From the NCBI GenBank assembly GCA_026770705.1, contig JANJGN010000034.1, positions 11,408,001-11,472,000 on the forward strand: a stretch of DNA of 64,000 nt, given 5' to 3'. Below the pieces are notes generated by a model. It had not been told where the DNA came from. It saw only the letters and a program-made list of their open reading frames with translations, and ran no database searches. A program made the translations under genes and the position numbers. This document shows, piece by piece, positions 1-46,212 of the stretch (its first letter is position 1; each line of letters begins with the position of its first letter). Source of the stretch: Isurus oxyrinchus. Lineage: Eukaryota.

Positions 1-93
1 AGCGCCCCACATTACAAATGTATGTGTCTAGCGCCATTACACTTCTATCTCTCAACTCCCAAGAAAAATTGCCTATATGAACAACTTAATTAA

Positions 94-3386: not shown

Positions 3387-4705
3387 TGTTGAAATTTTCA
3401 GTAACACTTGATTTTTTTTAATGGACCCACAAACATAAATTGGCTGGTACTGTAATGCCACCATTTGCCGGAAAATTCCGATGTGGATTGCACGTGTCCA
3501 AATAGTCCAAAAGACAGAATATTGCACCTAATCAATGTTTTCCAGAATAGGGCAGTCACGTGAATCATGAATTAATCGTTTTCTTTATAGCTTTTAAAAG
3601 AGCACTAGGCACTTCAATTGCACATTCTCTGAGTGCATTTTTGCATGTAAATGTGTGAGTAAAGGCTATAATGTTAGATTGAGCGTGAAAATAAGCAATT
3701 ATCTTTATTTAAACGCACAATCAGGAGGCTACTAGTTATTCAAGTTGTTCACACTTTCAAGGGATAATAAACACGTGTCTTTCCTTCAAAATTTTACTGA
3801 TTACAGACAACTGGGAAGGGAGCAGAGATTTCCCTGCTTCTCTCCGTCACACTGTCCGTAACAGCCTCCGCCCACATCCCACCTGCTCATGTCATGCTTC
3901 CCAAGGCGCGGGACAAATTGAAGCTAACTTCACCCAGATCTTTGGTGTTCATTACGTGGCATGGGCTTATCACTGGAATCAAGAGTGATCACGAATCTGG
4001 AGCATTAATACTGTTACCTTAAATTAGCTTTCTCAGTTTGTGCTTTGTTTGCATTTTGCAAGGGAGTCTTAAGTTTTTGGCCCACAGCAACAACATTTTG
4101 CATAACGAGCCAAAGATAAACACTCAGTTCACAATATAATCAAACTACAAGTGTTATTCTCAACCGCACACCCCGAGTTCAACATCCTCAGTGGCAAGTG
4201 TTTAAACTGGACTCACGAGGTAGGGTCATTTGTGAGCCAGCAGAGAAAACAATTGCCATAAAATTATTATTATTTTGTTGTAAAGCCTGACGAGTTCAGT
4301 AATGCCCTTAGTGGCAAATAGCATTTCACGCCATTCACTCTATATCAAGTTATAAGTTTTGGCAACCACTGAATACTATGAGGACACCTGGAGATCACAA
4401 TTGAACACTGCCTTGTCATGTGATATTCCTGCCTTGTGAAGAAATGAGGAGACATGACGCTGTGGATACTGAAAGGATGGCTCCCCTTTGAGGGAGAAAA
4501 TGGATCAATGAGACAGAGTTTTAAAATAAGGGTCATAATCAGTGCAGCCACGAACTTATTAAATAGTGGAGGAGATTTGAAGGAGCCGAATGGATTTCTC
4601 AGGCTCCTGATTCGTCTGCACGTTTGTTCTTAAATGGAAAATCCTACATTCCGTTTGCTTTTTTAAAAGATGGCAGATGACGTGTGAAATGTTCTTTCAA
4701 CATAC

Positions 4706-4749
4706 CTCATCAAGTCACTGTAAACCGACCGATCGTGCACTTGTAATCC
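4706..4749 (-). CDS. Cytoplasmic exon, second half of ITAM: GLQVHDRSVYSDLM(R)
   Basis: ttttaacag acceptor and gtatgt donor; 44 nt, phase 0 to 2, open. Confidence 0.85.
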
Positions 4750-4879
4750 CTGTTAAAATTAATAATATATTTGTTTTTTTAGTGAACAACAATAGAGTGC
4801 GTTAAAAGAGAACTGAGGTGAAATATAGGATAAATAGTCAGTAAATGAAATAAAAGAATGCACAAAATAATATCCTGAC

Positions 4880-4921
4880 CATATAAGTAGAGTCTTCCTC
4901 AAGTGGATTTGTAGCTTGCTC
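4880..4921 (-). CDS. Cytoplasmic exon, first half of ITAM: EQATNPLEEDSTYM
   Basis: tttttacag acceptor and gtcagg donor; 42 nt, phase 0 to 0, open. Confidence 0.85.
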
Positions 4922-5397
4922 CTGTAAAAATGCAATTTGAAAAACGAAATATGAGCAGGTACACAAGATTTCCATGTAATTACTTCATAATTTAGAACGA
5001 TTAGAATGTCATATATCCCACAATAAAAGTTATACCAATTTCCCTAAAATAACTAGCCCCAAATTAAATTTCAGGGATGAATGTTCATTACTAACACGTG
5101 GTGAAAGAGGAGCAACAGCGTACAGAATATTCATTTCACTCAGCACTCGGTTATCATGACTGTAGTAAAATTGAAAATTGACGCCAATATTCCATGCTGC
5201 AACAGGAGCATTGTTTGATAATCTTATAAAAACAGGAACCAGTCCACTAACTGAGTAAGGCAAAGAACACCGAAACCCCTACCCTAGTCTGACTTATTGC
5301 CGAATCGAGTTTACTCCGATTGCATGAACAATGACATTGTTATCCTCACTGGAATGAACTCGCCAATGTGACCATGTTTTAATACAATTGTACCAAC

Positions 5398-5462
5398 CTT
5401 TTGCTTTCTTGGAATATTTTCGTAGGCCGATGCTGAATTCTCCCCTATTGTAGCAGGGCTGC
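5398..5462 (-). CDS. Cytoplasmic exon: SPATIGENSASAYENIPRKQK
   Basis: ttctcacag acceptor and gttggt donor; 65 nt, phase 1 to 0, in frame with the downstream ITAM exons. Confidence 0.8.
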
Positions 5463-7477
5463 CTGTGAGAATGAAAAACAGTTAATCACATCTCCACATA
5501 TAATCGCAGAAGCATACAATGACAGAGCACAATCGGAGGTCTTTTAGCCCACCATGCCAGTATCAGCTCTTTGAAGGTGAAATACAATTAATCCCATTCC
5601 TCAAACATTTTCGCACACCCTTGTAAGTAAGCTTCCTTACCGTGCATATCCAACGTCCTTGTCAAACTGATATTCAATATGATTCCAACAGATGTTCATG
5701 TTATGCAACCCGATCATAGAAATTCGCTGCCTAAATATAAATTTACGCCTCACGCAGCTGTCTTTTTGGGAACTAGATTTCATTTTTACCTCATATGGCT
5801 GCTTACAGTTTCTCCTAATTTCCTTTATCACGATATTTCGCGATTTTGAACACCTCTGTAAAATCTCCCATCAGCCTCCCTGCTTTAAGGAGAATAAGCC
5901 CAGCTACTCCCATTCCTCCACGGAGCTACTTCTGTAAATCTGCAGTACACACTCCTCAAGACAGTAACATTAGTCCTGAATCATTGAACCATGTACATGC
6001 CAATAGAGTGAGAACGGTTGCTTCATGTTCTGAGGAATTGCAGCTTTTGTTTCTTAGTTTTCTCTTTCTGTTTACTGGGGTGGACTCCGTTCGTGCTAAT
6101 TTAATGATTACTTGAGTTGTAGGGTCAATTTTACGAACTAAGGGTACACGTGGAACAGTCGTAAGCAAGGAATGAAAATTGGTGGGAATCTAGTTCTACT
6201 TTTTTCAATATAACGCAGAAGAGATATCAAATCGGCTGCTGGTTCGCCATCATCTATTCTACATTAGAGAGATGCGCGGAATTGTCCTAGGTATTTCATC
6301 ATGTGGGTGTTCCTGAAGTTGACAGATTCACACTTTGAGCACCCAAGTAGCAGAAAAGACAATGGTTAGTTCCAGGCAAAACCTTTGTCTCACCGTCAGC
6401 TCTGTATGTGTACACAAAGCTATTCGGTTTTGAACTTTCACGAGGAATGTACAACTCACTGTGAAACGAAGCATTCGCATGAAAATAGATACAGAAGCAT
6501 ATATTGGATGTTATTGGTGTCAACGTATTTTCAGTCAGATATAATTTGCACGAACGATTGCTTCTTTTCACCATTCACAAGTTAGTGAAACCTATATGAA
6601 ACAGAATGTTGAGCGATAGCCATGTTGATCTGAACTTTTTTTCAAATAGTGTTTAGTGCTGGGCAATTGTGCGTAAAAGTGCTCAACAAGAACAAGTTTA
6701 TCTAAATTGATGTGCAAACTTAAAGATTCATAAATCTGCCCGATGTATGCTTATTTGAATGAACTTCAACTCATAAAGCACTATTGACCCCTGCAACCTG
6801 ACATTCAACATGGAAATGCTAAAGTATTTCACTTACTATTTTCTGTTGGATTAATGTTTGTAGCATTTTGCCCTTGCGTTGGTTGTTGCATCCTAAAGAA
6901 ATGTAGTGCAACATAATAAAATAAACATTTTCAGGACGATATAATATTGCAATCATGATCTGCAACAGAAATCCTATTTGTTAATGTCTTATTATTAGTG
7001 AAAAATATCTTCCTAACTGGAAGGAACAAATTTCATTCATGCTGGGCAACATCGATATTCCTTTATTCTTTTGCCGGACGTGGGCGTCGCTAGCTGAGCC
7101 AGCATTTTTTATTGCCTATCCCTAATTGCCCTTGAGAAGACGGTGGTGAGCCGTCTTCCTGTGCCGCTGCTGTCCATATGGCGTAGGAGCACCTAAAACA
7201 GTTTGAGTATTTGGAAGATGCAAAACTGAGTAACTGCATCAGCAACAGTAGTGGGGTGTTATCATACCAGAGTGGGGAACTAACAGTAGGTGATTTTTGT
7301 CAATCAGAAGTATAAACGATTATTATTGACTGTGTAAACCTGACTTATAAGTATATAGACTTGGACAGACACATAAACATATTTTGAAACAACCTTTCAC
7401 GCATTTCCTTTGATTCAATTCATCAGGCTACAGACAAACTACTAAAGGTGCAGATGACATTTACATAGACTATTTAC

Positions 7478-7601
7478 CAGCATGCTTTCTTTTTGATCAG
7501 CCACGCGCATATCCCGCCGATCGTTCCCAGAATAAGTAGAACAGCAATCACGATGCCTGCTTTGTGACCACTGCCTAATTCAGTGGTGGAGGAATGTTGT
7601 C
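7478..7601 (-). CDS. Transmembrane exon: GQHSSTTELGSGHKAGIVIAVLLILGTIGGICAWLIKKKAC
   Basis: ttttcag acceptor and gtaaat donor; 124 nt, phase 1 to 2; hydrophobic span followed by a KKK stop-transfer signal. Confidence 0.9.
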
Positions 7602-9734
7602 CTGAAAATGCATTAAGAACAGATATTGAAATTAATATCAAATGCCGGAATCAATTAAACTCCTGTAGCAATGGGCCGGTATTTAAACACATTTTGCCAT
7701 AGCGCTTGATTGCTGCTAAATTTCAACAATCCAAGGAATAAAAATGGCCATCACAGAGTTCTTTCGAGCCAATGTGACACGTCATTTAAATACAAGCCTC
7801 TGCACCTGCAAGGGCAACCAGGTAATTGAGTCTTTACGTTCTTGATCCCAAAATATTTTAAAAATTTTTCTCTACAGCTCTTAATGGGCCAAACAAGTGC
7901 TGAGCTCAATGAATTCAATCCCGACTGTTGGCCGTGTTGTCTTCCAATTTTTCAGGAAGCGTTTCGTTTGATTCCCAAAAATATTAATTCCTTTCCTCAA
8001 CTGAAGCCTACATTTCACATCTTGTCAACTTTCTTTTTCTTGTGTCTTGAAACCAGTTGGATTTCCCTTGGCAGTCCCCTTCTGTTTCTCATCTACCTGA
8101 TGCATCAGTGGCAACATGCCAAAATATATAGCTAGATTTTATGGGGCGCTGTGGTCCCCATACCCAGGAGCGAATAAATTGGGAACCAGCCAATCCGCAC
8201 TGCTGGCCCCTGCATGGAATTTCCTATGCCGAGCAGACAGATTGAGGGATAAGTGCGATGTTGGGGTGGGAGAGGGGCTGAAGTGGACAAGCCAGTGTTG
8301 GTAGAGGAACAGGGAGACGGAAGACCTGCCGGTCCCTCCAATGCGCTATAAAATTGGCCATATCTAATGTCTTGAAAACAGGGTGCTAGCCATTTGCCCA
8401 TCGTCAAAATGGATGCAGAAACAGGCCGCATTAAATCTATTCCTCAGGGAAATGTTCACTGTGTAATGGACAAAGTCTCAATGTGCCAAACGCCACCACT
8501 TTTGGACGAGGAAAGTGCACTTTCTAACTCAAGTTACCCGGGATAGGCAACATTTCTCAAAACTTTGACCACCCGTAAAAGCAAGCCGTTTCTCGCTGCT
8601 ACCATGCAGTGTCTCCGTGAATGGTATTTTCCACTAACAAGATGCTGCCTCAGCCCAAAAAGATTGCTCTGCCTATCACACAACTGAGCACCGCCATGCA
8701 TCAATTGCAGTGCCGTTGTGATGCCATGTGTGTAGGCCGTATGTCCCAGTGATTGGCTGATCGAATCAAGCAGCGTGTTATATTGGTTGTTCATAAGAGT
8801 GTTAAACGTTAAAAACAAAGGTAAAAGTACAGCCTAGTCAACAGATACTGGTATCTTGAAGTAGCATAACCTAATATGGCCAAACTGAAACCTAAATATA
8901 ATTTTGATATGCACAGTACGTCTTTAATCTGGAAATCTGTAATAGCAATGCTTGTTATTCCGACGATGCATTTGGCAACAACTCACTTTGCACATCCTCT
9001 TGTGTGTTGAGTTTCTCTGGGCCACTGACTAAATCCAAGTGACCCTGTCCTCCTAAAGGAGAGCAGCACTAACACAGAACAACTGAACCCACAAATGATA
9101 ACGTGTATGGCGGTAAAGTGGGATTAGTGTCGCAGAATTGAGTTCCCACAGCTATATACATTCTTACAGCAATGAGTGGTTCTCCCTCTTTAGTGTACTG
9201 GAGATGGACAGTGTATAGGCAAGCGAGGGAATTCATGCCTTTGATTTTTAAGACTACAGCCCTGTATCTGCGAAATGCTGAGTCAAGCACAGTGGTTTGC
9301 CTATTGAAGCCACGCTCTAATTGCACCAAGCAAAGCAAGGGGGAAAACAGCCCAGTAATAATTATTTTTATTTATATATTTGGTCACTCAAAGATCAAAC
9401 GTAAGATTTTTCCCACAAGAAAATCAGCGCTTCTAATTTGAGGAGAAATATTTGTTGAAGCAAGTCAGAAATAGTTATTTTTAAAATAGCATTGGTGTAT
9501 GTAATTGGGAAATCATTGCATGAGCAAAATTTATTTCTATTTATGCTTCGCAGTCTTCAAACTGAGCCTGTTACTGCATAAATAAGAGATGTTTATGCAT
9601 TTTGGTAGTAAAATGTCAGAGCCTCTCCATGCACATGGAACCCGATTACCGAGTCTCTGCTCATTCTTACAAACTTCACCAGTTCACCTCTTCGCAATGT
9701 TCATATTCAAGTAAATATTAATGATGTCACATGC

Positions 9735-9912
9735 TTTCGGAAAAAAAAAACATCTAAGTTTAGCGAAGTTCTGGATTTTCGGCAGCCATAGCACAATTTA
9801 GATAAATTCACAAGTAAACACCAGAATTGTGAAATTGAACCTGGGAGGGACGTAAACCAGGTAATATTATATACATTTCCAATTACAAGCCTCGCACTAA
9901 CTTCAGGTCCAT
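9735..9912 (-). pseudogene. Heavily degenerate Ig-like exon (GPEVSARL...NITWF...TSLNLDV)
   Basis: Begins (x)GPE like CEACAM IgC exons; the acceptor reads ttaa instead of ttag; shorter than a full domain. Confidence 0.35.
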
Positions 9913-10449
9913 TTAAGTATATGAAATTCATTATTGAACGTGGTGAATAACAAGAGAGAAATGCAACACCGCCCAGCATGCATCCTTGTCCGGTCTAATA
10001 TCCCTCGCTAATAATTGGCGCACTAACATTTTAGGATAAGTCAATGTCTACATGATAAATATCCGAAATATGAGTGCATGTTAACAATTGTGTTTTAGCT
10101 TGTTACAGTCTATATCTATTCTGGTTGTGGTTGACTTGCAGTAACACAGCACAAGTTTGAACCATCCCTGCTTAATTCAGTTTTTATTTGTAATAAAAAA
10201 CTTGCAAATACCAGTCAGCATGAATAGAGAAAAGATATAATCCTGCATGATCAATCTGGATGAAGCTACTTGTGAAAAACCTTGGAAAGGGCAATGCAGA
10301 GCGTTTCCTCGAACTGTAAGCAAGATTTCAGAAAAGTGTCAGTCAGAAGCAGAAGAGTTAATTACAAGCATCGGGGCTACGGGCCCTGGGTTACCAAAAG
10401 AATTAAACAGGCTGCAACGTTCAACAATGTACGCTGACATTTTTTGAAA

Positions 10450-11830
10450 CATGCAAGGAAGAAGACTATTCGGCCCAAGGTGCCTTGCAGACTCATTCAA
10501 CTGTCCATCCAAATTGCCTCACTCCCTTGATCCTGCTCAAGGTGACCTTAAAATGTATATTCAATTCATTTACGGAAAAATAATATTGCATTTGTTTTCA
10601 TCACACTAAGACATAACACTCCAGACTTCTGCAATTTTCTGCAAAGAAAATGATTCTCATCTCCCCTACCTGTTTCGCCAATTATCTTAAATCTGCATTG
10701 TCTAGTTGCCTATTCTCCAACCAGTTTCCCTTCATTCACTCTATCAAGCCCGGCATTATTTTGTAACCTCTACTTTACCTCATTCACAGGAAATCCGAAA
10801 TTCTTTTGAGTGTGCACACCCCTGAAATTACTCATCCCATATATCATTCTGTTAGGTGCCCCCTCCTACCTCCACAAAAGATCAGCGTACTTCGCAACGT
10901 ATGGTGCAGTGAAAGGACATATAAATGTCAAGTGTAAAGTACTGAATGTAGGAAGACAAAGATAAGTGGATGAACATGCCCTGCAAAGTATGTTGGTGCA
11001 AAACCATTAGCATCGAATTAGCGTAGTGAATGCAATAAAATTGAATTTTCGCAGGAAGAACACGACAGTAGGTAAAAAAAATCAAAGGTAAAATTCAAAA
11101 GGAGTTTCGGGAGCAGAAAGGCCTGAGGTATATGTATGCATAAGTCATTGAATATGACAGGATCAGTTGAGTGAGTGGTTAGTAAATATACCATATCCTA
11201 GGCTTTATTAATGACGGCATTGAGTTATGTTAACCTTGTATAGTAACTGGACCTGCCTCAGCTGCAGTATTGCGTCCAATTTGAACGCACAACACTTAAG
11301 GAAAGACCTGAAGGCATTAGAGTGTGTGCAGGTAAGTTTCAAGAAATGGTTGCAGTGTCGAGAAATTTCAATTATCTTGAAAGTTTCAACAGGTTAGGAC
11401 TTACAGGGAGAATAGAAGTTGAGAGCTGGTTTGATTAGACGGAGAAAAATCATGGGGCATTGAAAAGCGTAGACAGTGAAAAATCCTCCCATTAGTGGAA
11501 GGATTGAGGACATGAGGAAAAACTTTGTCAAGCAGCTAGTGGTTGAGATCTGGAATGCATGACCAGACATTGGGCGGAGGGAGGTTCAATCGAGCCACGT
11601 GGTAACGACATTGGAATTGTATTTCAGAAGCCCAGGAGAACTGTATGACGTAGTGAGTTCAAATTCCACCGTGGCAGCCAGAGAAATTTTAATTCAACAA
11701 ATAAATTTGTAATTGAAATCTAGGGTCAGTCATGGTGACTATGAAAGCATCATCAATTTTCTGAAAAACCCATTTGCTTCACTCATTTTTATTAGGGAAG
11801 GAAATCTGCAACCCTGCCCTAGCTAACAGG
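10450..11830. mobile_element. Cluster of old CR1 LINE 3' fragments (both strands) and a SINE fragment
   Basis: CR1-like PQLQYCVQF segment near 11255-11285 and GGRFNR-type 3' end; SINE B-box gagttcaaattcc at 11656. Confidence 0.6.
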
Positions 11831-11899
11831 CCCACATTTACTCGGTGTATCCCTTCTACCATGAAAGCCAGTCCAGCAAGCATCCAGTTCACTCAAAGA

Positions 11900-14110
11900 T
11901 CTGTGGCGTCTGCGGGTGCGATAAGATGTACAAGTCATGAAAGCTTCCTGGGTATCTAGCATAAATATGTAGGGTCTGCCTTCTGTGATCACAAATAAGC
12001 TGGGCGTTCAGAAACTGAAATCCTTTCCAATTGATGAATCTCACAGGCGGCTGACAGGGAACTCAGAGGGCTACATGTGTGCAGCAGATGGCGCCCTGCA
12101 CTTGTGGGAAACCACATATTGTTGAGAATACAACAACTCTGGCAGCCTGGCTTTTGCAACCATCGTGGAGCTTACAGGTGAGCTCTATTGAAAACGGTAT
12201 CTGCCAAATATAATATTTCCCACATGACCCATTGGAGCCCTGGAATTTTCTGCTGGCAAAAAAAGTGAAGCGAAGCTGTTACCTTCAAAGCCAGCTGCAT
12301 GGGATGCCCTCCAACTCCTTGCAGCATCAGTTGTTCACGGAGAAGGTGGCAAAAGTGAACTACCAAGTTGCTGGACAACCGAAGGCGACTGCAGCATTGT
12401 GATCTGTACATCCCCGTATATCTGCGGAGATTTCTGTATACCAGTGTTGGGCCACTGGTGTTCAATGAATTATCCTCTCTTTGGGAGCACCTTGGATTCT
12501 TGGGACGCCGCTGCTTCTTGTAGCTCATGTCGCTGCACTCTCTGGGCCTGCACCAAACGCCAATGGGCCCTTCTTCTCCTCATTGTATTAGAGCTATAAT
12601 CAAGGCCGGTTGCCTGCACCTGGCATTCTGCACTTTCAATTGTCTCTGTCAATGAATGTATTTCAGAATTTACTGAAACTTTTCCTTCACAGGTTTCCTT
12701 CCACCTCTGGGCCAGGAGGCCAATGCAAAGACTTTGGCCTGAACTCCCTCTGGGTGTGCACCCTCAGGCCTCCCCTTGAAAGTGTCGAACATCCTGGAGG
12801 ACCACAAGTGGCCGATCCTGCCCTTCAGACATGACTGTGCATGACTACGACCATGTGCGAGAACCCTGTCATGAAGAGGTATTAATGTCTATAGTGTCAC
12901 TGGAAAATATTTTAAAATTACAATTAGTGGGATCTGCATCTACATGAGTGCCTAAGCGTGTGTCTGCGTGTGTCCTAACTTGGTTAATGCCAGCTAGTCT
13001 GAGTGTTTTGATGCATGGTAGCTCAAGATGTTAATTGTTTCAATAGGTGAAAGGCAATTTTCGATTAGCATTTGTTGAATAAACCATTCAAAAGAATGGA
13101 TAAAATCTTACACCTAGATGGGAGATGCCAAGCAATGCGTTTATATTACTAATAAAATCGATGCAATGAAAGGATTATCGTTTAGAGAGGTAAAACTAAA
13201 AACCTAGCAACACAATAAAAACTCTGCATTCAAAGCGGATGCTAGGTATATACAGAAAGAAGTTTGTATCTATAAGTCAGAGGCATTTAAGATCTAACCA
13301 GCCTGTAAGCCAACAACTGTTTCTGCAAAGGAGGCAGATTGAAAGGATCCTATCTTTGAATTCGTAAGATCAAATGTGCTTTGCCTGATGTCTGTTTGAA
13401 GTCTCTGCATTATTAGTGCCATGTTGAAGATTTACCTGGAAGCGAATAATGTTGGATTTGTTTAAAAGATATTGTGCGAGTAATTTGTGGAAACTTATAT
13501 GCAATTAATTTGTTGTTAACTTAATAAACGTTTAATTTAGTTTTATACATAAAAACCTCTTTAGGCCTGGTGGTTTTATTCCTGATTTCAGAGCTGCATT
13601 TCAAACACACGAATTAGGAACATAGGTCATGACCGTTGTTCAAGTATCCTTATGGGATTTAAACAGCTCAGCCTTTAGCAACTGCCGTGTCATAACAAAT
13701 TCCCATCAGTGAATTGTCAGCAGGCCTCCCTGAGACTGAACACTCTATGCAGAGAACATATCCTTGTCATAATGGCAACAGGATAAGCATTGTGCTTTGT
13801 AATCCAGGACCACTTAACTGGGATTAGTGAGGCTTGGAGTGTGCACGTAAACTGCGCGGATGCCGTGGTCCTTGAATGATTCAAACGCCATCCACTTCCA
13901 TATGCCTTTTGGAGGAACAGATGGCTAAACAAACCAACTCAAAAGTAGCTCCAAAACTCAATGGATTCTCGAATGAATGCGCACCCATTAGTCAAGGAGC
14001 AATAATCAATGGATATTTAACCCTAAAAGCCAGGTCTCAGCTCGGTCTTGTTCTCCTTGTATTGAACAAACAATTAATAGGGTTTCCCATCCGTCCACCC
14101 AAAGGATTAT
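11900..14110 (-). mobile_element. PIF/Harbinger transposon remnant (HARBI1-like transposase N-terminus), interrupted by a solo LTR
   Basis: The peptide RLRLSSNLVVHFCHLLREQL..GVGGHPMQLALKVTASLHFF resembles Harbinger transposases; frameshifted. Boundaries approximate. Confidence 0.8.
12867..13697 (+). mobile_element. Solo LTR-like insertion (~830 bp)
   Basis: TGTCATGA...TCATAACA terminal inverted ends, internal AATAAA and an abrupt switch to AT-rich sequence; no TSD recognised. Confidence 0.6.
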
Positions 14111-15304
14111 CCCTGACCTCCTCCCAGACACCTCTCATATCGAGATTTTCACGTTTGTTTTTCAACTGAGTCCTTACTGACTAAAGATATAGATGATTTT
14201 TCTAACGCTTGTGAATACGAACGACATCTACCAACCTCCACCTGCCAACCACCAGGTCCCTCTGTCCTCCTGCATAGCCACTGCCTCCTAATTCCACACC
14301 GTCGTGTGACCAGCGTATCTTCCGTTATTACCCTTCACCCCATTATAGTTCATATGGACATCCATTTTCTACTTCACCCCACAATTTCCTACAATGTTCA
14401 TATCCCGACGTTCATTGTTAGTGTGACCCCTTCCCTTCTCGAGGCAACAGACAACGTTACTTTCCGAAATCCCCACCCTCCACCATGAGACCATCCAATT
14501 ACCTGCTGGAAATGCCTTCCTTGAACATGGCTCTGCCCTCTGTATCCCAGTAGAATGCCCTGAAAGCCCAGGACCAAATAGCTGAGATGAATAGTCACAT
14601 CCTGCCCACGATTCCCAGAATGACAGCCATTGCCCATCGAAGCCTTTCCTGATGCAAGACCGGGACCAATACTTATGTCACACGTAGGGACCTTTACCAA
14701 GGCCTGGGCACAGTGGCCACATCCCCTGGACAGTCTCTTAAACTTGTCCCCTGAACAATGTTACACCCTTCCCCAGGCAATCTCTTAAACTTGCTCCTCA
14801 TGGACGCTCATTCACCCTTTCCCTCTGGTCCACCTGCAACCCCTCTTCCCCAAGCCCTGCCACCATCGTACACTTCACCCTTTGTCGGGCCCCCTATGCC
14901 CAGCCTTGGTGCAGTTTGTGCGATAGGCACCTGAAATATCTCAATAACACTGTACAAGTTAGATGAAAGCATCGCCTACTAGCCTTTCAATTGTGAACGC
15001 AGTGAGAGATCGCCATTTCCATGCTAGATATTTCCAGTCGTAAAACAGAACGACCAATTAGCCGCTTTTAGGGAACTTCGTTTGGACGGGGAACGTGATT
15101 TCAGCATGTTGACTTTTTAGTAAGCATTCATGACATTCTAATGAAAGCAGATGGGCATCCCCCACATTGCTAATCCGGAAACCCGACCTGCCTTTAAGCT
15201 GCCTGCAATGTTGGGAGAAGAAAATCCCAAATTTTTTGCCTGCTGTCGGGAAACTGTTCTTGGCCTGTGACTGAGAAGCTGTGGGATCAGTAAGGCAAGG
15301 AAAT

Positions 15305-15945
15305 GGCCCCAGGATCTAGTGATGTTGCCCAGGATCTAGTGATGTTGTCCTGCACTCACAATGCCGAGGTGTTGAACATGGCCAGAAGGCCATGTTTGGA
15401 CAATGTGTAAGAAGTCTCCAAAAAGTGACCCTGAGGAGGGAGTGAGAGCTTGTGGCAAGGATGGTGAATGCCCAAAGCATCTCACCTCAGACCTGGCAGT
15501 AGTGCCGATAATGATTTAATGACCTCGCTTTGGGCAAGGTGGGCAAATGGATTAGCACACAGGGTCTGGTAACCACATCAATGGACACCACACATCGCTT
15601 CAGGCACCACTTCCTGACATTCAGGGGTCATTCCTAACATCCTTACATCGACATCTCAACCAAACGCACCTCAAAGCCATACCAGCTACCCACATGGTAG
15701 ACACGGCCACAATATACTTCCAGCGATTCAGCTACTGCACACATCACACACACATTTAATGATGCCCTGGCCTCTCTCCTGCAGGAGAATACATTCACAA
15801 CAGCTGCGAACGCCAGTGGACCAGAAGAGGACCAGTCCAAATGCAGTCCATCAGTGCTAAGGGGGGATTTACTTTCGGAACGTTGGCAGAATTGCTACTG
15901 AACCAGTGGCATTTGGCGCAGTGTATGCCATCCTAGATGATGGTT
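15305..15945 (+). mobile_element. Harbinger-associated Myb/SANT-like gene remnant (two exons)
   Basis: E*ELVARMVNAQSISPQTWQ*CR**FNDL matches the W..VA..VNA....RTWQQCRKKFNDL pattern; a second exon follows ctcctgcag at 15785. Confidence 0.75.
15308..15347 (+). repeat. 20-bp tandem repeat x2 (cccaggatctagtgatgttg)
   Basis: Read directly from the sequence. Confidence 0.95.
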
Positions 15946-18539
15946 AGTTGTTGCCTTGTGCACTTTGCCCACTAACTTCCTACTCCCACCCTTAAAGGTG
16001 ACATGAAATCAAAACTTGCAAATTTAGTTACCATGGACAATACAGCCTCCTTTCTCTTATCCTTACTAACCGCCCCCAATAGTTTTCATAATCCACAAGC
16101 TGTCAGTTGCTCAGCCCCTTCACAGAGAATAAGCTTTGAAGAGGAAACACAGTCACTGAACCAAACGGTCGCAGCCACCAGCCCGGATATTTGCACACTT
16201 GCATAACTTCGAGGCTAGTTTCAGAATCAGAATCTGCATGTGCTAAGTCATTAGGCATGCTTGGGCTGCAGCCAGGACAGGGTATAGGTGAGCTCCTTTG
16301 CCCTCTCATGATGCCCATGACACCTCCGTTGCCCATTCATAACCCCATGACCCCTCATATCTACCAGGCTCCGCATACACTGTGCATAACCATTCATCCA
16401 GTATCCACTATGTGCAGAGCACATGAGACAAGTGATGCCAAACGAAAAGACTTTCAAATGCACTACAAAAAAATTACATCTCTTACAAGCACAGAAAATG
16501 TCAACCAAACGTGCATCCATTCATAATCCAGAGATAAAACTTCAGTCCTAATGGCATAAAGAAATCTCTTAAGTGGTCATTAAGTTGTGAAATTAAACAA
16601 CCACCCATTCAAAAAAAAAAACGCATTAAAGAAACTGAAACCAATGGCATGAGCATAAAACAGTCAGTTCGCTTCACAGCTGTGTCAAGAGATCCCCTGA
16701 TGAGCTCAGTGGTTTCTGAAACTCAGCCAAGTATTCCTAATGGGCTCAGCTGCAAAAACAGACTATTACAGCGGAAAACAATTATCACTTTTGAAGTAAA
16801 AGGATTGGATGGAGTGGTTTTCTTCTCAAAATTTCAGTTTAGACCAGGAACAAATGGCCAGATTTTTTTCAATCTTCAGATCACAAAAAACAGGCTCCCC
16901 CTCTCACATTTTTACATGTTTTTGAACGCATAAGTACAATTCCCGCAATGAAAATATACCCTAATGCATCTCAATACGTAACAAGTTCTGGTCAATGTAA
17001 TTCTCAACTTATCTTTAAAGGGCAGATATTCCTGATCAATCATTGTATTAAAAACATAATTAAAGCGATAGAAAAACCATGAACACACACTTACACGGGT
17101 ACACCGTCTTTAAAAGCACATATTATCTTACACCATCTAAACATGTTTGAACATATGTGTCAAAACGCTCAGTACTCCAGAGTAGTATTTCCCCCATGAT
17201 TGCGAAATCCTCTGCGGAGCCATGAACGGCATCTCCTCGGAAAGGTTGGCCTAAATGCATCAACACTGTACGGGGCTTTCAAAGGTCCACCCCTCCAGCA
17301 ACACCAACAACACCCCCCACCCCCCCCCCCCCCTCGCCCCCCTCGCCCCGCAATGGAACCAGAATAATTGCGAGTACAAGGTGCAGGGTTGCTATCCTGT
17401 GCCGGCAAAAGCTGCTGACAATGGGAATGGGGCGGGTATCTTAGAATCCGGCCCCGCCCGCCAATTTTATAGACCTTCTGACTCGGTACGACGGCACAAA
17501 TAACCAGCCCCATGTGTATGAATTTGTGTTTAAAACCTTGCGATGAGACTAGTGGACAAAATAATCCGCGTTGTGAAATGTTGCTCAGGGAAGCCTCAAG
17601 TTACAAGATATATTCAATAACCTGTATAAAAGGTTTGGTAAGTAATCATGGGGCCTGGTACACTATGTAACACCAGAATTGGTTGATGCTGTCTATGGAT
17701 TTGGGTAATGTTGTTTGTAGCATCGAACCCAGCCTATGTGAAACTACCACCCTACTGCGGTCTGACACTACTCTTCTGATTTACACAGTACTTTCCAAAT
17801 ACGGACCCACAACAACTTTGAGGTCAGTCACTCCACCTCGACTGCAATTATAGTATTAGTCGTCCATTCAGATAAAAAACGTGCCTCCACTATATACAGG
17901 GGACCAATTTGTGAGCAGCAAATGCAGTAGACTAAATTTAAAGATGTGTAAGTGAATCGCTGTCTCCCTTGGAATGCATAATTAGGTCCTTGGAAGGTAA
18001 AGAGGGGGGAGATAAAGGGGCAACCGATAGGCCTTCTCTAATTCCATGCAAAGGAGTGAGTTGTTGGGCGCGTTGGAAGACTGGACCAAGACGTAATGGA
18101 GGGAAATGTTCCTATGGAATGCTGACAGGAGACGTGATGGACTATTAAAGTGAAGCTTGCGATTTAGGAAGGTAATTAGCATAAAAGTTTCCTGCTAGTA
18201 TGAAATGCTTTAAAATGCAACATGAAATAAAATGACAAATATATTTCACCATTCACAGATATCAAAGTGGAAGTCTTCATTTGGAAATATGCATGGAAGA
18301 AGGCCATGGAAAACAGTTCAAGGGTTAAAACAATTTGATGGTTCGATACTTCATAGCATCAAATTAACAGTTGTTTGTGAGTGCAACAAGTGCGATGTTA
18401 CCCCCAATTCTATCAACAAAACTAACAGGACCAAAGAGCTGCACTTTCTTTCTATTCATACAGTTAACTACTAAATAACTTGACCTTTGAATGGGTGAAA
18501 TATAAGTTAATGAAATAAGATTCAGAAATGTGTACTTAC

Positions 18540-18799
18540 CTATTACAACTTTTTGTTTAGTTGAGGCGCTGTTCCTTTTTGTTAATCCGTTAAAAGGCTG
18601 AGAGGTATATGTTGCAGCGCCATTCAAAGTAATGCTGGAAATGATGAGTTGTTGCCCTTTTTGCTGCAGAGAGGCATTGTTGATAAACTATTCCAATTCT
18701 GCAGGTTGGTTTGAATCCATAGAACATGAGAAAGTAATGGTTTTTCCAAAAAGGTAAGCGGACAAATCAGGGTCTATGGATATGTTAGGGAGATCGGGT
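18540..18799 (-). pseudogene. IgC2 (B-type) pseudo-exon: PDLPNISIDPD...KTITFSCSMDSNQPAELE*FINNASL...TYTSQPFNGLTKRNSASTKQKVVI
   Basis: CEACAM IgC pattern. The core Trp is a TAG stop, the second Cys is Ser and the 5' end is damaged; the gtaagt donor is intact. Confidence 0.85.
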
Positions 18800-18999
18800 C
18801 TATGTAAAATAAGTGCACAAATATATTTTAATAACATTATGCTAAAATGAAAAGCAGCAGTGGACTATACATTTGCGGCAATCACCAACATCAGAGAAAC
18901 TACGCACCCTTGTGTTTTATGCAGTCCATCATGCAAACTTAAGTCAATAAGTTGTGCCATTTTCCCCGGTGCTCACTGGTGGGATCCAATGTCAGTTTT

Positions 19000-20900
19000 T
19001 TATTATTTCGTTCATGGGAGGTTTCAATCACTGCCAGGCCAACATTTATTGCCCATCCCAAGTTACCCTTGATAAGGTGTTGGTGAGCTGCCTTCCTGAG
19101 ACACTGCAATCCACGTAGAGCACGTGTACCCACAGTGTATTTGAGAGGGTTGCGTGTGGTGGTGGGCTGGTGTTTCCAAGATTTTCTCCCAGCAATAGTT
19201 GAATTTCCAAGTCAAGGGGATGTGTGGCTTTAGGTTGGGGGGTGGAGGGGTGGTGGCGATGGTGGACGTCCTGGTGGTTGTCTTCCCACTTGTCTGCTGC
19301 CCTTCTCCTCCGAGATAGTCGGGGTCCTGGGTTTGGGATCGGCTGTCTAAGAAGCATTGGTCAGCTCCTGCAGTGCAAGTTGTAGATGGATACACATTGC
19401 TGCTACTATGCGTCGGTGGTGGAAGGAGTAAATGTTTCTGGATGATGTGCCAATCAAGTAAGTTGCTTCGTCCTGGATGGCATTGAGTTTCATGAGTGTT
19501 GTGGGAGCTGCATTCGTCCAGGCAAGTGGGGAGTATTCCATCACACTCCTGACTTGTGCCTTGTAGATGGTGTACAGCCTTTGGGGAGTCAGCAGCTGAG
19601 TTACTCGTCACAGAATTCCCAGCCTCTTAACTGCTCTTGTCACCATGCTATTTATATGGCTAATCCAGTTCAGGTTATGGTCAATGCTAATTCCGAGGTT
19701 ATTGGCAGTGTGGGATTTTTGATGGTAATGACTTTCATTGTCATGAGGCAGTGAATAGATTTTCCCTTTTTGGAGAGGTTCCTAATAATTGTGTGGCACG
19801 AATGTTACTTGCTACTTGCCAGCCCAAACCTGGATATTGTCATGGTCTTACTGCATTTGGACATGCACTGCTTCAGCGTCCGAAGGGTCACGAATGGTGC
19901 TGAATTTTGACAATCATCAGTGAACATCCCTCCTTCTGACCTTATAATGGGAGGAAGATCATTTATGAAGAAATTGACGAAGGACTGGGGGAGGGGATTA
20001 TCCCGATGAACCCATGCAGCGATGTCCCAGAGCTGATATGATTGACCTCCAGCAAGTAGAGCCAACTTCCTTTGTGCTAGGTATGACCCCCACCAGCGGA
20101 GAGCTATCCTCCTCTTATGCATTGATTTTACTATTGCAAAGGCTCCTTGAAGCCACATTCGGTCGAATGCAGCCTGGATGTCAAGGGCAGTCACTCACAC
20201 CTCACCTCTGGAGTTCAGATCTTCTGCCGATCTTTGAACCATTCTGCAATGGTTCAAATCATTACAGGAACTGAGCGATTTTTGTGGATCCCAAAGTTGG
20301 CATTGGTGAGCTGGTTATTTCGAAGCAAGTGTTGCTTGATAGCACTGCTGGTGATCCCCTACATCACTTTTCTGACTGTAGGGAGAAAACAGTTAGCGCA
20401 GTAATTGGCTGGGTTGGATTTCTAATGCTTTTTGTGCAGCGAACGTACCTGGGCAATTTACCACAATGGCGGGTAATGCCAGTGCTGTAGAAGCCAATGC
20501 TGCAGCTGTACTGGAACAGCATGGCTAGGGTCGCAGCAATTTGAGAAACATAAGTCTTCAGTTCTGTTGCCGGAATATTGTCAGGGCCCAAAGCATTTGC
20601 AGTATTCAGTGCCTTGAGCTGTTTGTTGATATCTCATGTAGTGAAAGGAATTGGCTGAAGACTGGCACCTGTAATGCTGGGGAACTCCGGCGAGGCCGAG
20701 ATGGATCACCTTGGCACTTATGGCTGGAGATTGTTCCAAAATCCTCAGCCTTATCTTTTGCATTCACGTGTTGGTCTTCCCCATCATTGCGGATGGGGAT
20801 TTTTGTGGAGCCTCCTCCTCCAATGAGTGGTTTAGTTGTCCACTACCATTCACAATTGGATGTGGCAGGACTGCAGAGCTTAGATCTGATCCGTTGATTA
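19000..20900 (-). mobile_element. 5'-truncated, degenerate CR1-clade LINE (reverse transcriptase fragments and 3' tail)
   Basis: Peptides KALGPDNIPA, ALDIQAAFDRMW, FINDLP...MFTDD and MEYSPLAW. Confidence 0.9.
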
Positions 20901-20929
20901 TGGAATTCTTTAGCTCTGCCAGGTTAGCA

Positions 20930-21335
20930 ATGGTGGCACCAGAATTGAACCTGGGGAAATTCAGGTGCAGTACCATTAACACTGTATTCGTAATTCAAAG
21001 GCCCAGGATAAGGCCCTGGGGACATGGGTTCAATTGCTACCACAATATCTAATGGACTTTAAATTAAATTAATAAATCTGGAATATAATGCTAGTCTCAG
21101 TAATGTTGACTAACCAGGGCAACTATCATTCATAGACAGATAATCAATCTGGTTCACTAATGTCCTTTGGGGTAGGAAATCTGCGGTCCCTAACACTTAT
21201 GGCTTCCAAACACACAGAAATGTGGTTGACTCTCAACTGCCTTCTGAAGTGGCCTAGTAAGCCATTCAGTTCAAGGGCAATAAGGGATGGGCGGCAAATG
21301 CTGGCCTTGCCAGTGACACCCACATTCCATGATTT
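20930..21335 (+). mobile_element. tRNA-derived SINE sharing its 3' tail with the adjacent LINE family
   Basis: B-box-like ggttcaatt; the 3' end gcaataagggatgggcggcaaatgctggccttgccagtg matches the reverse complement of the LINE tail at 19030-19070. Confidence 0.7.
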
Positions 21336-22155
21336 TTTAAAACATAAAAGCCAAGGTCTCCTGATTCTGATGATTTCTAATCACTTTTGTTGAATACATA
21401 TGTACATTTGGAGATCAGGGATGGAGAGGATATGATTCTTGCTGTGAGCTGAAATTTTAAAATGTGAGATCTGTACAAACCTGCTGGGCACATATAGCAG
21501 TATGGTTGCATCAAAATGTATTGTTCTGAGAAAAAATATCTATTAAAATTTGAGTTGGACAATTATGATTCTTTCCCTCAAACCAGTCTGAATTTCATCT
21601 TTTATCGGATTTAAAAATAAACTAATTAACTTCATTGAAAATACTTTAACTTTATTTATTTAACTTTATTGAAAATGAAACCCGAATTTTCACTGAAGAA
21701 TCACACAACTGTTCAAATACCACGTACAATAAACTCGTATGTGTTACATCATCTGGTGTTCCCGCTCATAGAATTAAGATTGAGCCGTTATGTCTAATGG
21801 CTTCTGGGATCATACCACAATAGGTTATCACCCCCAAAAGTTAATTCATTTAAGATTAGTCTGTAAACAAAGAAGTGTATAGCCAACAAAAACTGTTCCA
21901 ATACTATCAATTATCAGTGAACATAAATTTTATGATGAGTTCTGTCTCAAAAAAATCTAAGTATTTCGAGTATACTTATTTACATAAATAATCTGAGGCA
22001 ATTTTCCTTGGCAATGTAAATGTGATGAGCTATTTGTTTACATGTTTCAGTAAATAATCCTTATATGCAAACAATCATTTATTTCCCTTTTCCAATCTGA
22101 AATGTAGCAGGTATGGTGATAAGTTACAAAAGTAATGATCTGTTGGAGCACCTGC

Positions 22156-22449
22156 AGCTACCATTTAGATTGTATAGGTCACTTGTTACTCTGCTAAAGG
22201 AGTTGAATGCATAGAACTTGAATCGTCCATCAGACCTAATCACTAGTGATATATAGTGAGAGATATAGTGAGAGTTCTATTACCACCACTTAGATCAAAG
22301 CTGCTATCCGTAATAATAGCACGATTATCCTCAAGCCACTGATATGAAACTGCAATGCCTGATACGATGCATGTCAGATGTCAATACGGTGTCATTGTAT
22401 TTGACTGTGTTGGTGACACTGGTGATAATATTAGGTTTGTAAACAGGTT
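22156..22449 (-). pseudogene. IgC2 (A-type) pseudo-exon: EPVYKPNIITSVTNTVKYNDTV/LTCIVSGIAVSYQWLEDN...GNRTLTI/..RSDGRFKFYAFNSFS
   Basis: ttttgacag acceptor and CEACAM A-domain pattern; two frameshifting insertions; second Cys lost; donor reads gcaggt. Confidence 0.85.
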
Positions 22450-23729
22450 CTGTCAAAATACAGGAAAGTAGTTATCAGAACTTAAAAGTAAGTTTGGAGG
22501 ATGGTGGATTTAGCTCCAAGTTCTAAAGGCAGCATTTCATTTTGAATTTTCATCTGTTGTTTCCTTTCGGTAATAATTCCTGTGATGCTGGTGTTAATAA
22601 TTCTACGATCTTTATCCCCACCCCACTACCCCCACGCAATCCCCACCTCCCCCTCACCACACGTGCCCCGCACACCCACACCCTCCACCCCCAACGAGGT
22701 AAACCTGTCTCCTTGAATATATTGCTCACTTAGAATATCAACTTAAATAAATTTCCAATCATGAAAGGAACATAGCCTACTAAAACAATTACAGACTCGG
22801 TCCTAAAATAAAATGTCCTCTCCCCGAAGACCTCGAACCTAATGTATTTTTTGAAGATAGAACATGCGTAGAGGTATCTTATAGCAGACTGAACTATTGT
22901 GGAGTTTCCCAAAATCAGCTCTTCGGATTCTAGCTTCGACTCCTAGGATATTTTGATCATGTATGTGGGCTCGCGGGGGAATATAGATTGGAGACTGCAA
23001 CTCTTGTACACTTACTTAATACATGTTTTAAATCAAAGCCAATTATATATTACAGCTAATACATAAGACATATAGATGATAACTAAATCAAATCATATCA
23101 TCTCAATAATATTTAAGGGAAATACATTTTAACCCACCATAATCAGCAGTTCTTTTGCATAAAAAACAAATATCAATTAGAGATAATCATACGCACAAAC
23201 CATTGTAATTACTCAAGATTCTGCAGTGTCTTTGCCTCAAATATAGGGAATCCAAGCTTAGACTGATACTCATTCTATGGCTGCAAAGAAGGCCAAAAGA
23301 TTGTTGACCTATGGGCACCATTACCATCTGTCTGTTTAAAAACATCGCAGCTGAACACAAAAAGGCTTTCATTATGCATTGGTGTTTGTGATTCCAAAAG
23401 AAAAAGCAGTGAATGAAAATAAACTATTTATCGGAACAATGTCATTGGTGAATGTAGATAAGAGACCTTTACAGACTAAAAGGAAACATTTTGGTTGGCA
23501 GCCATTCAAATAGTAGAGAGACAATCCAAAGGCTTTTTTGGTTATCTTTGGACTTGACATCCTCGCAACGATTCATGAACTGTATCCATGCTATAATATC
23601 AAGCTCTATGCCTAATTGTTTTCCTCTATTAATGTTAATTAGTGCGTCTTAAATTTGCAATAATTGTTTTAGTTTTGTCACACTGTCAACTTAAACCGTG
23701 CAAGATCTATCTGTTGATCCCTGAGATTC

Positions 23730-23960
23730 AGACTGCGCAGCAGAGACTTGCACTCCAGTAATATAACATTCTGCCCTTCTCATCATTCTCAAAATAAGAG
23801 CCAAACTACTCACTGCAATAAAAAAAAGTTTCTCCTCATAATACTTCTGTTTATTTTATTAATTACTTTAAATTGGTGTCCTCACGTTCTCGATCCATTT
23901 CTACTGGGAATAGGTTCTCCCTAACTACTCTATCCAAACCCCTCACTATTCTGATACCTC
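23730..23960 (-). mobile_element. CR1 LINE 3' fragment
   Basis: Peptides IRIVRGLDRVVRENLFPV...GHQFK...MRRNFF across frames. Confidence 0.65.
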
Positions 23961-24474: not shown

Positions 24475-24807
24475 CAATAGACTGCAACAAGGCGGCAGCA
24501 GCCCGCCGTTCGCGTGTAGGGTGTTGAAAGGATGGCACAGAGGTCCGCCCCTATGTCGTCAGTGGCCAGGCTGCCCCCTGCCTCTCACTCCAGCGCGTTT
24601 ATGGGCCGGCAGCTGCTGCAACGCCAACTGGGAATTTGCAAAATAACTTTTTCAACACTTCTTTCGCGCGACCGCCGTGCACCAGGGCTGTGCTGGGGAG
24701 CGCTACCCCGAAACAGGAAGTGCTAAATGTTACCCGCGCTGCGGCAAGGCCATAGAGACCGAGTATTTAACGTCTGAGCTGCGCACTCCCTGCCCCTCCC
24801 CAGCCAC

Positions 24808-25104
24808 CAGTGAGCACAAAGGAAGTCACTATTGTCACAAGCATAGCAAGGTTATATTCCGTGTCCGGGTCCACCCCACACTCCGTCATATCACCTCTGA
24901 ACCAGCATTTTGAAAAGGCCACAGGCACTGCTTCAACATGGGCCACTGGACATATTCAGGTTTCTGGGCAGTTCAACTTCAACAAAGTCACAGATTCTTG
25001 AAATTCTCCAACCCCTTTGGTGTCTGAATAAATCAACACCGAGACCGTAAGTACCGATCCACCCGATAATAGGAAGCCCGTGCAGTGTCCATTCTCCAGG
25101 TGTT
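24808..25104 (-). pseudogene. Possible degenerate IgV (N-domain) exon of copy 1
   Basis: 297 nt between a pyrimidine-rich AG and a GT, phase 1-1, in the expected position between leader and IgC. Motif remnants GGSVL, FQNAGS (another frame) and DTEYNL; internal TGA. Confidence 0.4.
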
Positions 25105-25339
25105 CTTCAAAAGCAGGAAAGCAGAAAATTGTGATATTTGAACAACTTGTTTGGAAAAGGTCAGGACACCGGAACATTTCACACAAAAATGCCGAAGACA
25201 CGAGATATTACTCCCAGATCAAGAACTGGCACGTTGCATGGTGCTGCGCCAACCCAGTTAAGTGAGACCGCTGATTGTCTCCCGCTCCAGCAATGTCTCA
25301 AGTTTGAAAAGGTTAAATGGCACAAAGCCCGAGTCACGT

Positions 25340-25660
25340 CTTAATCTCCGTGAGCCCATTCTGTCCCCTGAAATCACTGCGATCCTCCAATTCTGGTCTC
25401 TGAATTACAACGAACATTAATCACTCTTTCACGGGCGGACATGCTGTTCACCTGCCTCAGTCCTAAATTCAAGAAATCCGATCCTGAACATTTCCACTTC
25501 TCTACCTCTCCCTGTTCAATAAGCAGCTCAAAACCGTTCCCTTTCACCGAGGTTACAGTCACTTGTCCTCTTTTTTTGCCCGGTGTCAAATTGAATTTAG
25601 TAACAGCGCTAAGAATCAGCTCGTGACGCTGTGTTAGGTTAAAGGGACTTTATAATTGTT
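25340..25660 (+). mobile_element. L2-type LINE 3' end fragment
   Basis: Similar to 40340-40610 (ctcagtcctaaa...ccacttctctacctct), a typical L2 3' tail. Confidence 0.55.
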
Positions 25661-26427
25661 AGGTGGTCTCATTTTGTTTACTGGCCCTGTGTTATTGAAA
25701 GGATGACCTTAAATCGCCAGTGGGTGGAATTTCTCCCTGAGCCGGCAGCACAAATCGGGTGCGGTCACTTTGGCCGTCCATTAAAGCCCGTCGCCGTACC
25801 CCACGGCTCTTCCCCACACTCTGAATATCGGACCCCTCTCCGGCTTAGATCTGGTTTCCCGTTCCTATTTAGATCATTTGACCTCCTGGCGAGGAGGAGG
25901 CTAACGGAAGATGGCCGGCGACAGGGAAGTAATGCGATAAAGGCCGCAGATTCCTTCTACGTTCAACTGCGGCAGCAACACTGGGTACTCAGCTTTGAAT
26001 GGACGGAGGTCAAGTCCGATGTTTATCGTCCCTCCCTATTCCAACGACAGACTGACCGATACCTTTCTCCCTGAATACTCAGTTCCTATACCCCGCCTCA
26101 GTCTACGGCTCCACTGGGTTTGCGGGGGGGTGGGGGAGTTGGTGGGGGCGGGGGGGCTGGGGGGGTGGGGCGATGGGGGCGGGTGGGTGGAAATGCTTTG
26201 CCTCCGACTGTCACATTTATCTGAATGTTTTCTTTCAAGGTACTTAAACCCTGGGGATCAGCTAAGGAAAGGTAATCACATCAGTGAAGCGAAGCGGCCA
26301 AACTCGACACGGCATTTTCATTTCTAAACTGATAATTCCTGTTATATTTTAACCTGATTCTCTGACAAGCTCTTTTTGTCTTCCTTCTCTATCTTTAAAA
26401 GAAATCATCGGAGAAATTGATACTCAC

Positions 26428-26479
26428 CTTCATCCATTAATAAGCAAAGAGCGACCACAGTTAAAAGGGGTCTGATCAA
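26428..26479 (-). pseudogene. Signal-peptide exon (L/M)IRPLLTVVALCLLMDE, starting at TTG
   Basis: Hydrophobic 17-codon stretch ending at a phase-1 gtgagt donor; no in-frame ATG upstream before a TGA. Confidence 0.65.
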
Positions 26480-46168: not shown

Positions 46169-46212
46169 CTCATCAAGTCACTGTAAACCGACCGATCGTG
46201 CACTTGTAATCC
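46169..46212 (-). CDS. ITAM exon 2, copy 2: GLQVHDRSVYSDLM(R)
   Basis: Identical to 4706-4749, splice sites intact. Confidence 0.85.

Follow-up and report, generated by a model that had tools for sequence, protein, structure and literature searches.

A tandem pair of CEACAM3/4-like ITAM receptor genes in Isurus oxyrinchus, one a pseudogene and the other probably dead

Results

A duplicated block carries two copies of a spliced receptor gene

[quoted passage not shown] The window is vertebrate DNA with a G+C content of about 42% and is dominated by one large repeat, each unit of which carries exons of the same gene. We think it likely that these are a tandem pair of CEACAM3/4-like ITAM receptor genes, made up of a pseudogene (copy 1) and a second, probably also dead gene (copy 2), and that relatives in other sharks are paired with inhibitory CEACAMs through their N domains. 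The features are listed below; A, B and N denote the immunoglobulin (Ig) domain types of CEACAMs, TM the transmembrane exon and Cyt1 to Cyt5 the cytoplasmic tail exons.

1..22496: first unit of the duplicated block; its partner is 41471-64000
41471..64000: second unit of that block; cut off at the window edge
26428..26479, minus strand: copy 1 leader exon; TTG in place of the white shark Met; GT donor, phase 1; 15/17 residues identical to the XP_041032827 leader
26176..26261, minus strand: remnant of the copy 1 N exon (IgV-like); some 26 codons, then a C-rich block, then unrelated DNA containing stops
22163..22449, minus strand: copy 1 A-type IgC2 exon; frame shifted twice, near 22378 and near 22244; 62/89 identity to A1 of XP_041032669
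18540..18804, minus strand: copy 1 B-type IgC2 exon; 61/88 identity to the domain of a white shark relative
7478..7601, minus strand: copy 1 TM exon; no lesion; 90-93% identity with XP_041032827 and XP_041032829
6837..6892, minus strand: copy 1 Cyt1; intact
5398..5462, minus strand: copy 1 Cyt2; intact; holds a YxN (Grb2-type) motif, a class given in the available text of PMC5112662
4880..4921, minus strand: copy 1 Cyt3; its last two residues are the first ITAM Tyr and one more; donor in phase 0
4706..4749, minus strand: copy 1 Cyt4; remainder of the ITAM; phase-2 donor; 44/44 bases the same in both copies
2128..2134, minus strand: copy 1 likely last exon (Cyt5); 7 coding bases including the stop; predicted splice
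63667..63953, minus strand: copy 2 A exon; two frameshifts identical to those of copy 1
60066..60325, minus strand: copy 2 B exon; the stop of copy 1 plus two extra frameshifts
48962..49085, minus strand: copy 2 TM exon; intact
48378-48323, 46925-46861, 46384-46343 and 46212-46169, minus strand: copy 2 Cyt1 to Cyt4; frame and splice sites intact
43575..43581, minus strand: copy 2 likely last exon; final residue changed to Pro, stop retained
39819..39870, minus strand: leader exon of another CEACAM relic; ATG and donor kept; 12/17 residues identical to the XP_041032665 leader
39675-39420 and 39348-39094, minus strand: two adjacent N-type remnants with one and two frameshifts, respectively; F strand without Cys

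The spliced minus-strand exons of the initial annotation are confirmed: leader, N, A, B, TM and tail exons are all present. In each copy, the TM exon and Cyt1 to Cyt4 carry AG and GT ends at 10/10 sites and join in a single open frame, with junction phases 2/1/0/0. The ITAM is canonical (YxxL-x7-YxxL) and, as had been proposed, is divided by a phase-0 intron, which lies between Cyt3 and Cyt4 and cuts after Y-x. Because 93-95 of the 109 residues of the joined TM-tail are identical to white shark gene models, the tail exons and their ITAM are not the product of chance. The TM helix has no charged residue.

The gene most likely ends in the 7-base exon at 2134-2128, rather than at 4014 where the locus had first been closed. 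Among five candidate acceptors in copy 1 the one at 2134 has the best pyrimidine tract (15/18), and the exon would supply two C-terminal Arg residues and a stop, as in the white shark models. The acceptor at 4014 is weak and absent from the candidates with at least 10 pyrimidines, and this end was abandoned.

The repeat, foreseen at a distance of about 41.5 kb, was recovered as an alignment of 274-22496 with 41727-64000, at 95.7% identity with gaps and 96.5% ungapped, even along the whole length. The repeat is about 22 kb in size with an offset of 41.5 kb between units; 58 indel events separate the units across 22,250 aligned bases, and the first 93 bases of the window also match in the partner unit. 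Runs of the letter N occupy the equivalent position in both units (94-273 and 41563-41726), as a gap or as masking. The unit count is two, within the 64-kb window only: the duplication behind the suggested tandem amplification is there, an expanded array and functional members nearby may or may not exist beyond it, and no working receptor was seen in the window. Between units 1 and 2 lies a third relic (39870-39094), made up of a leader and two tandem N exons, both frameshifted, with no A, B or TM exon before the next leader.

The exons belong to the CEACAM family

When the B exon was searched against the PDB with its stop read as X, CEA (E 2e-24), CEACAM1 (2e-9) and CEACAM6 (4e-9) came out on top. 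The N remnant at 39675-39420 gave CEACAM-family chains in all of its eight best PDB rows, with weak scores (E 0.02-0.04). A whole white shark relative matched CEA at E 1.5e-112, followed among non-CEACAM chains by titin at 1.8e-33, and for a white shark relative with multiple N domains CEACAM1 ranked first. No CD2/SLAM or HEPACAM chain, which would have pointed to another branch of the Ig superfamily, occurred among the 11, 39, 60 and 29 matches listed in these four PDB searches. The database matches of the B exon were white shark or basking shark CEACAM-like models in 5/5 cases (71-73% identity). A profile check of the Ig exons, suggested earlier, succeeded in part: among nine exon fragments only the B exon exceeded its curated Pfam cut-off (Ig_2, 27.7 bits vs 27), the others remaining below.

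The CEACAM N domain is IgV-like and lacks the disulfide between strands B and F. The F-strand DxGxYxC cysteine is absent from all of 120 N domains excised from relatives, of which 13 have any Cys. A leader with an N domain of this kind is present in the relatives, and the F strand of the remnants at 39.1-39.7 kb has no Cys either; the N exon of copy 1 is too short to judge. The A- and B-type IgC2 exons have CEACAMs as their best matches. A phase-0 split of the first YxxL occurs in other ITAM chains too and is therefore not diagnostic alone. The window gene has small tail exons, this split and the pattern D/ExxYxxL/I-x6-8-YxxL/I, which together define ITAM-type CEACAMs in the available text of PMC2110893 and PMC5112662. 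Copy 1 has no complete frame from leader through N to tail and is a pseudogene of the CEACAM family, not a working member. CEACAMs are already known from cartilaginous fish, through skate expressed sequence tags (ESTs) reported in the parts available of PMC4079198 and PMC3628338, and the window gene is a further, mostly dead member. Its first assignment as a CEACAM-like gene of ITAM type in a cartilaginous fish is upheld by the PDB matches and by ITAM-bearing relatives in the white shark.

The closest relatives have no A or B domains

Gene models of the white shark are the nearest intact relatives. XP_041032829 (CEACAM4-like, 235 aa) consists of leader, N, TM and ITAM tail, and XP_041032826-8 of leader, four to six near-identical N domains, TM and ITAM tail; none has A or B. 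Their leader, TM and tail are shared with the window gene, so intact homologs do use these exons, as the initial annotation would have it; the YxN motif, the ITAM and the C-terminal end are likewise shared. Leader, TM and tail of the window gene fit this XP_041032826-9 subfamily better than an N-A-B-A-B ITAM model (94-95/109 vs 72 residues), and in a tail tree both window copies group with XP_041032827 (support 100/99), which makes the source animal a near relation of the white shark. The white shark models are intact without A and B; in copy 1 the start codon and a full N exon are missing, and its A and B exons are dead. Since A and B do not occur in these nearest intact models, the two exons were probably outside the working gene, whose form, judged from the white shark gene models, would have been a leader, one or more N domains, a TM segment and an ITAM tail, as laid out in CEACAM3 and CEACAM4.

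Two leader-N(s)-TM-ITAM gene models with consecutive accessions exist in the white shark. Membrane-anchored ITAM models with four to six stacked N domains, automatically named PSG22-like, were seen in the white shark (P0012, P0125, P0126) and in S. torazame (P0029, P0030). Among mammals, stacked N domains are attributed in the available text of PMC2832619 to rodent PSGs and one platypus gene only.

Human CEACAM3 and CEACAM4 and dog CEACAM23-30 resemble the window gene in their leader-N-TM-ITAM layout, small tail exons and phase-0 split YxxL, and the dog and human tandem paralogs include pseudogenes, as does the window (PMC2110893 and PMC2832619, as far as their available text goes). The tail is encoded by four exons in mammals and three in reptiles (available text of PMC13278318) compared with five in the window gene, the last of them predicted. 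The kinship to CEACAM3 is a likeness of layout; orthology is no part of the comparison.

Copy 1 is dead, and the A and B exons probably decayed early

In copy 1 there is no in-frame ATG upstream of the leader TTG before the stop at 26560. The N remnant is recognisable (14/29 identity; frameshift-aware score 69 vs 24-35 for eight shuffles), and a shark N-domain hidden Markov model (HMM) matches it at positions 1-26 of 104 only. Similarity does not resume once the C-rich block is skipped, and no hidden N exon was found between the copy 1 leader and TM by tblastn with 65 relatives or by the shark N-domain HMM in six frames. The TTG start and the truncated N exon together mean that copy 1 is dead. 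The C/G-rich block in the remnant is 87 bases long (about 26102-26188), and one contig of the public DNA run X9, from a related organism, is without it.

All the Ig exons are present and all are broken, which had only been hinted at before. The B exon of both copies has a stop at the conserved Trp; in copy 1 its second Cys is also lost and its acceptor opens the exon in the wrong phase. Lesions common to both copies are the two frameshifts of A and the Trp-site stop of B. Identity to the white shark models is about 70% for the A and B domains and 85-88% for the leader and TM-tail, so that A and B probably decayed before the other exons and were left out by splicing at a time when the gene was functional. 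Between white shark and basking shark models these domains are conserved (A1 96%, B1 79-89%). Ig exon junctions are phase 1 as a rule, and the leader donor and TM acceptor are both phase 1. Since A and B were likely skipped before the gene died, their decay is no proof that the gene is dead. In run X9, the N remnant is joined to the same non-N DNA as in copy 1; because its contigs share this junction, the N exon was probably truncated before the duplication took place.

The leader and N exon of copy 2 fall beyond the window end, and copy 2 is probably also dead. Between the copies the TM-tail has nine replacement and three silent changes (pN 0.035, pS 0.042), and 319/331 bases match, comparable to the 96.5% background, so that the divergence looks neutral. 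In run X4, an A-type exon about 87% alike has neither frameshift, so that less damaged paralogs exist in the X4 organism, be it the window species or another. Two runs presumed to be RNA yielded, over 21900-26800, one 284-base piece that extends from the A exon into the intron and is thus unspliced. For 3700-7700 no RNA run was among the sequencing runs listed, a result that has no bearing on expression.

Gene models of ITAM and ITSM-type CEACAMs show N-domain pairing in other sharks

From the best 120 of 195 matches to a white shark ITAM model, together with cluster members, 75 proteins were examined, 74 of them labelled from 21 chondrichthyan species by their record names and one unlabelled. 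Among these proteins, full ITAM tails occur in 10/21 species (sharks, skates and rays), and tails with a motif (TxYxxL/V) like the immunoreceptor tyrosine-based switch or inhibition motif (ITSM/ITIM) in 14/21, including a chimaera; seven species have both. The tails group by class (ITAM vs ITSM-like) across sharks and rays, while the N domains group by species, and a clade of ITSM-type N domains only is rejected (p-AU 3e-8, 14 rows).

Twelve species have an ITSM-type N domain, of which five also have an ITAM-type N domain of their own. Own-species ITAM and ITSM N domains are 93% identical in the white shark, 93% in the basking shark, 94% in Mustelus and 98% in the sawshark, whereas identity to the best other-species ITSM N domain is 58-82%. 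The high N identity of a paired receptor was thus found in relatives only, in 4/5 testable species. Along the white shark ITAM and ITSM models identity falls from N (93%) and A1 (98%) through B1 (81%), A2 (75%) and B2 (72%) to TM (38%) and tail (31%). Between the white shark and basking shark ITSM orthologs the N domain is instead the least conserved part (82% vs 88-96%: A1 96%, B1 89%, A2 92%, B2 91%, TM 88%, tail 91%). By this protein comparison four sharks carry the signature by which paired receptors have been recognised in mammals and Xenopus, for which gene conversion would be the cause. The idea that the window gene is of the type that acts as activating partner of inhibitory CEACAMs gains from this, as its subfamily sits beside inhibitory CEACAMs in other sharks. 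We found no report of shark CEACAM pairing in a literature search that was thin on subscription journals and did not extend to supplements.

Further forms were seen among the relatives. Basking shark XP_078389776 (P0021) has six diverged N domains and a tail that begins ITSM-like and ends in an ITAM; it looks like a recombinant of the two classes. Six ITSM-type isoform models (P0001, P0003, P0011, P0013, P0022, P0028) have short tails that end soon past the TM, reminiscent of CEACAM1-S. P0047, P0074, P0037, P0050, P0035, P0064 and P0046 make up a third conserved shark and ray CEACAM-like class, whose members have a hydrophobic stretch at the C-terminus and only 5-8 tail residues. P0090 of S. 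canicula is Thr/Ser-rich, with Ly6/uPAR-type Pfam labels and an ITAM end, TM and N being undetected, and may be a fused model.

Other features of the window

No other host gene was recognised within the window, an Rfam scan of it gave 0 matches, and 0/9 long frames outside the exons matched Pfam. Decayed stretches at 19266-20700, 34100-34800, 60791-61720, 600-900 and 12175-12600 look like mobile elements, which we take, by eye only, to be of long interspersed element, long terminal repeat retrotransposon or transposase type; the frames tested in them had no Pfam match. A CpG-rich stretch holds a 159-base direct repeat (24050-24208 and 24316-24474, 98%), where contigs of run X9 omit about 200 bases. 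Just upstream of the copy 1 leader, 26660-26800 is a very high-copy short repeat whose depth in DNA runs is in the millions.

Discussion

The exons of the window are those of an ITAM-type CEACAM, and the question to weigh is what became of the two copies. It is rather unlikely, yet deserves consideration, that only copy 1 died and that copy 2 is a working leader-N-TM-ITAM receptor with its front exons just past the window. Its TM and tail exons and 10/10 splice sites are intact, the ITAM exon is the same in both copies, and the two white shark leader-N(s)-TM-ITAM models with consecutive accessions would support such a gene; as the closest intact relatives do not use A and B, decay of these exons is uninformative on a working copy 2. 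Nevertheless, replacements relative to the white shark model fall evenly on the two copies (5 and 4), to which copy 2 adds its last-residue change, and a contig of run X4 that differs by 2.7% from copy 1 spans the non-N DNA behind the remnant, as a second truncated copy would. A different doubt concerns the repeat itself, which might be an assembly artefact of two haplotypes placed in tandem, given the N run at a matching position in both units. We regard this as very unlikely, since the 3.5% of substitutions are spread evenly over 22 kb together with the indel events, lie well above shark heterozygosity and are accompanied by copy-specific frameshifts in the B exon; the N runs, moreover, may be masked stretches rather than gaps.

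Since the leader donors and the TM acceptor share phase 1 and both copies have an open TM-tail frame, the leader, or the ATG leader at 39.9 kb, could also splice directly to the TM exon and form a small ITAM adaptor without an ectodomain, like DAP12 or FcR gamma. Adaptors of this type use a charged TM residue, which the helix here does not have; the TM-tail gives no sign of purifying selection, none of two TM-exon matches is a relative without an ectodomain, and copy 1's own leader has no ATG, all of which makes this reading highly improbable. It is still harder to believe that the gene is CEACAM-like only and belongs to another Ig superfamily branch such as CD2/SLAM, HEPACAM or JAM. Cys-less V domains are also found in the CD2 family, one sawshark relative is automatically named HEPACAM-like, and Pfam Receptor_2B4 reaches 65 bits as a sum across all five N repeats of XP_041032827, none of the stretches passing by itself. 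However, CEA, CEACAM1 and CEACAM6 lead every PDB search, with the CD2/SLAM and HEPACAM chains missing from the matches listed, and the L-N-A-B-TM order (L, leader) with its phase-0 split ITAM fits the CEACAM papers (available text of PMC2110893, PMC5112662 and PMC2832619).

Several observations nonetheless speak against a pair of dead genes with N-paired relatives. The neutral comparison of the TM-tails rests on 12 changes and does not reject an omega of 0.3 (p 0.088). A 330-base tail would stay intact by chance since the duplication with an expectation of about 42%, so the intact tail favours neither a dead nor a working copy 2, and those copy 2 exons in the window that the working layout needs carry no lesion. 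Among the relatives, a single ITAM tail of the basking shark is placed with the ITSM tails, where it forms a long branch, Hemitrygon is unpaired at 61.5% (1/5 testable species), and two Scyliorhinus ITSM models without a full N domain stand outside the pairing test. The N domain of XP_041032829 is identical to the white shark ITSM N at 87/106 residues, so that the window subfamily is less tightly paired. All relatives are automatic, uncurated gene models, and the figures are at the protein level.

A tandem pair of decayed CEACAM3/4-like genes would fit the following course. The A and B exons probably decayed early and were skipped by splicing. The N domain, which stays close to its counterpart in the inhibitory ITSM-type CEACAM of the same species, would bind the same microbial adhesin, and phosphorylation of the ITAM by Src-family kinases would recruit a Syk-type kinase and Grb2 and lead to uptake, by analogy with human CEACAM3. 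The window gene would once have served as an ITAM partner of this kind before it was duplicated and then lost. Duplication followed by loss is described for dog CEACAM paralogs in the available text of PMC2110893. In the CEACAM1/CEACAM3 logic, as given in the accessible parts of PMC2832619, PMC5112662 and PMC13278318, microbes exploit the inhibitory CEACAM, whose N domain diverges fast, and ITAM partners kept similar to it catch the same adhesin and trigger uptake. By analogy with mammals and frogs, the paired CEACAMs of sharks likely act as pathogen decoys.

The paired Ceacams of Xenopus (PMC5112662, text available) are the closest parallel: ITIM/ITSM receptors have ITAM partners with N domains 80-93% identical, the N domains of orthologs are divergent, as in sharks, and the ITAM tails carry a YxNx motif, like the window and white shark tails. 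In Xenopus, according to the same text, conversion was shown on DNA and is confined to the N exon, whereas the shark evidence here is similarity at the protein level. Unlike the Xenopus N-only tract, the shark similarity extends to A1 (white shark) or to most of the ectodomain (Mustelus).

For fishes, the available text of PMC5112662 states that paired receptors were not yet investigated. The abstract of PMC3628338 has the ITAM-bearing architecture span cartilaginous fish to humans, and its text, so far as available, documents ITAMs in teleosts and traces ITAM/ITIM signalling back to the teleost-tetrapod ancestor; it also gives LIPE, CNFN, PAFAH1B3 and ZNF574 as CEACAM marker genes. The little skate CEACAM of PMC3628338 and PMC4079198 is of the same family in a cartilaginous fish as the window gene, but in the parts available it consists of ESTs, without a shark cluster or pairing, unlike the present comparison.

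What the window holds is a commonplace relic of birth-and-death evolution in a known family, and the pairing in other sharks is the stronger lead. We lean, by a little, towards the view that sharks run a full CEACAM paired-receptor arms race, in which an ITSM-type inhibitor is accompanied by several ITAM decoys (some with four to six N domains), the N domains are re-homogenised by conversion within species, and spare copies, such as the pair in the window, die. The white shark and S. torazame models flag multi-N-domain ITAM receptors as a layout, and concrete genes can now be named for opsonin-independent bacterial uptake by shark leukocytes. If the arms-race view is true, shark pathogens with CEACAM-binding adhesins are to be predicted, and the activating/inhibitory CEACAM pair would date to the jawed-vertebrate ancestor, before the published teleost-tetrapod one. 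If the pairing holds on DNA, the CEACAM1/CEACAM3 logic would reach the oldest living lineage of jawed vertebrates.

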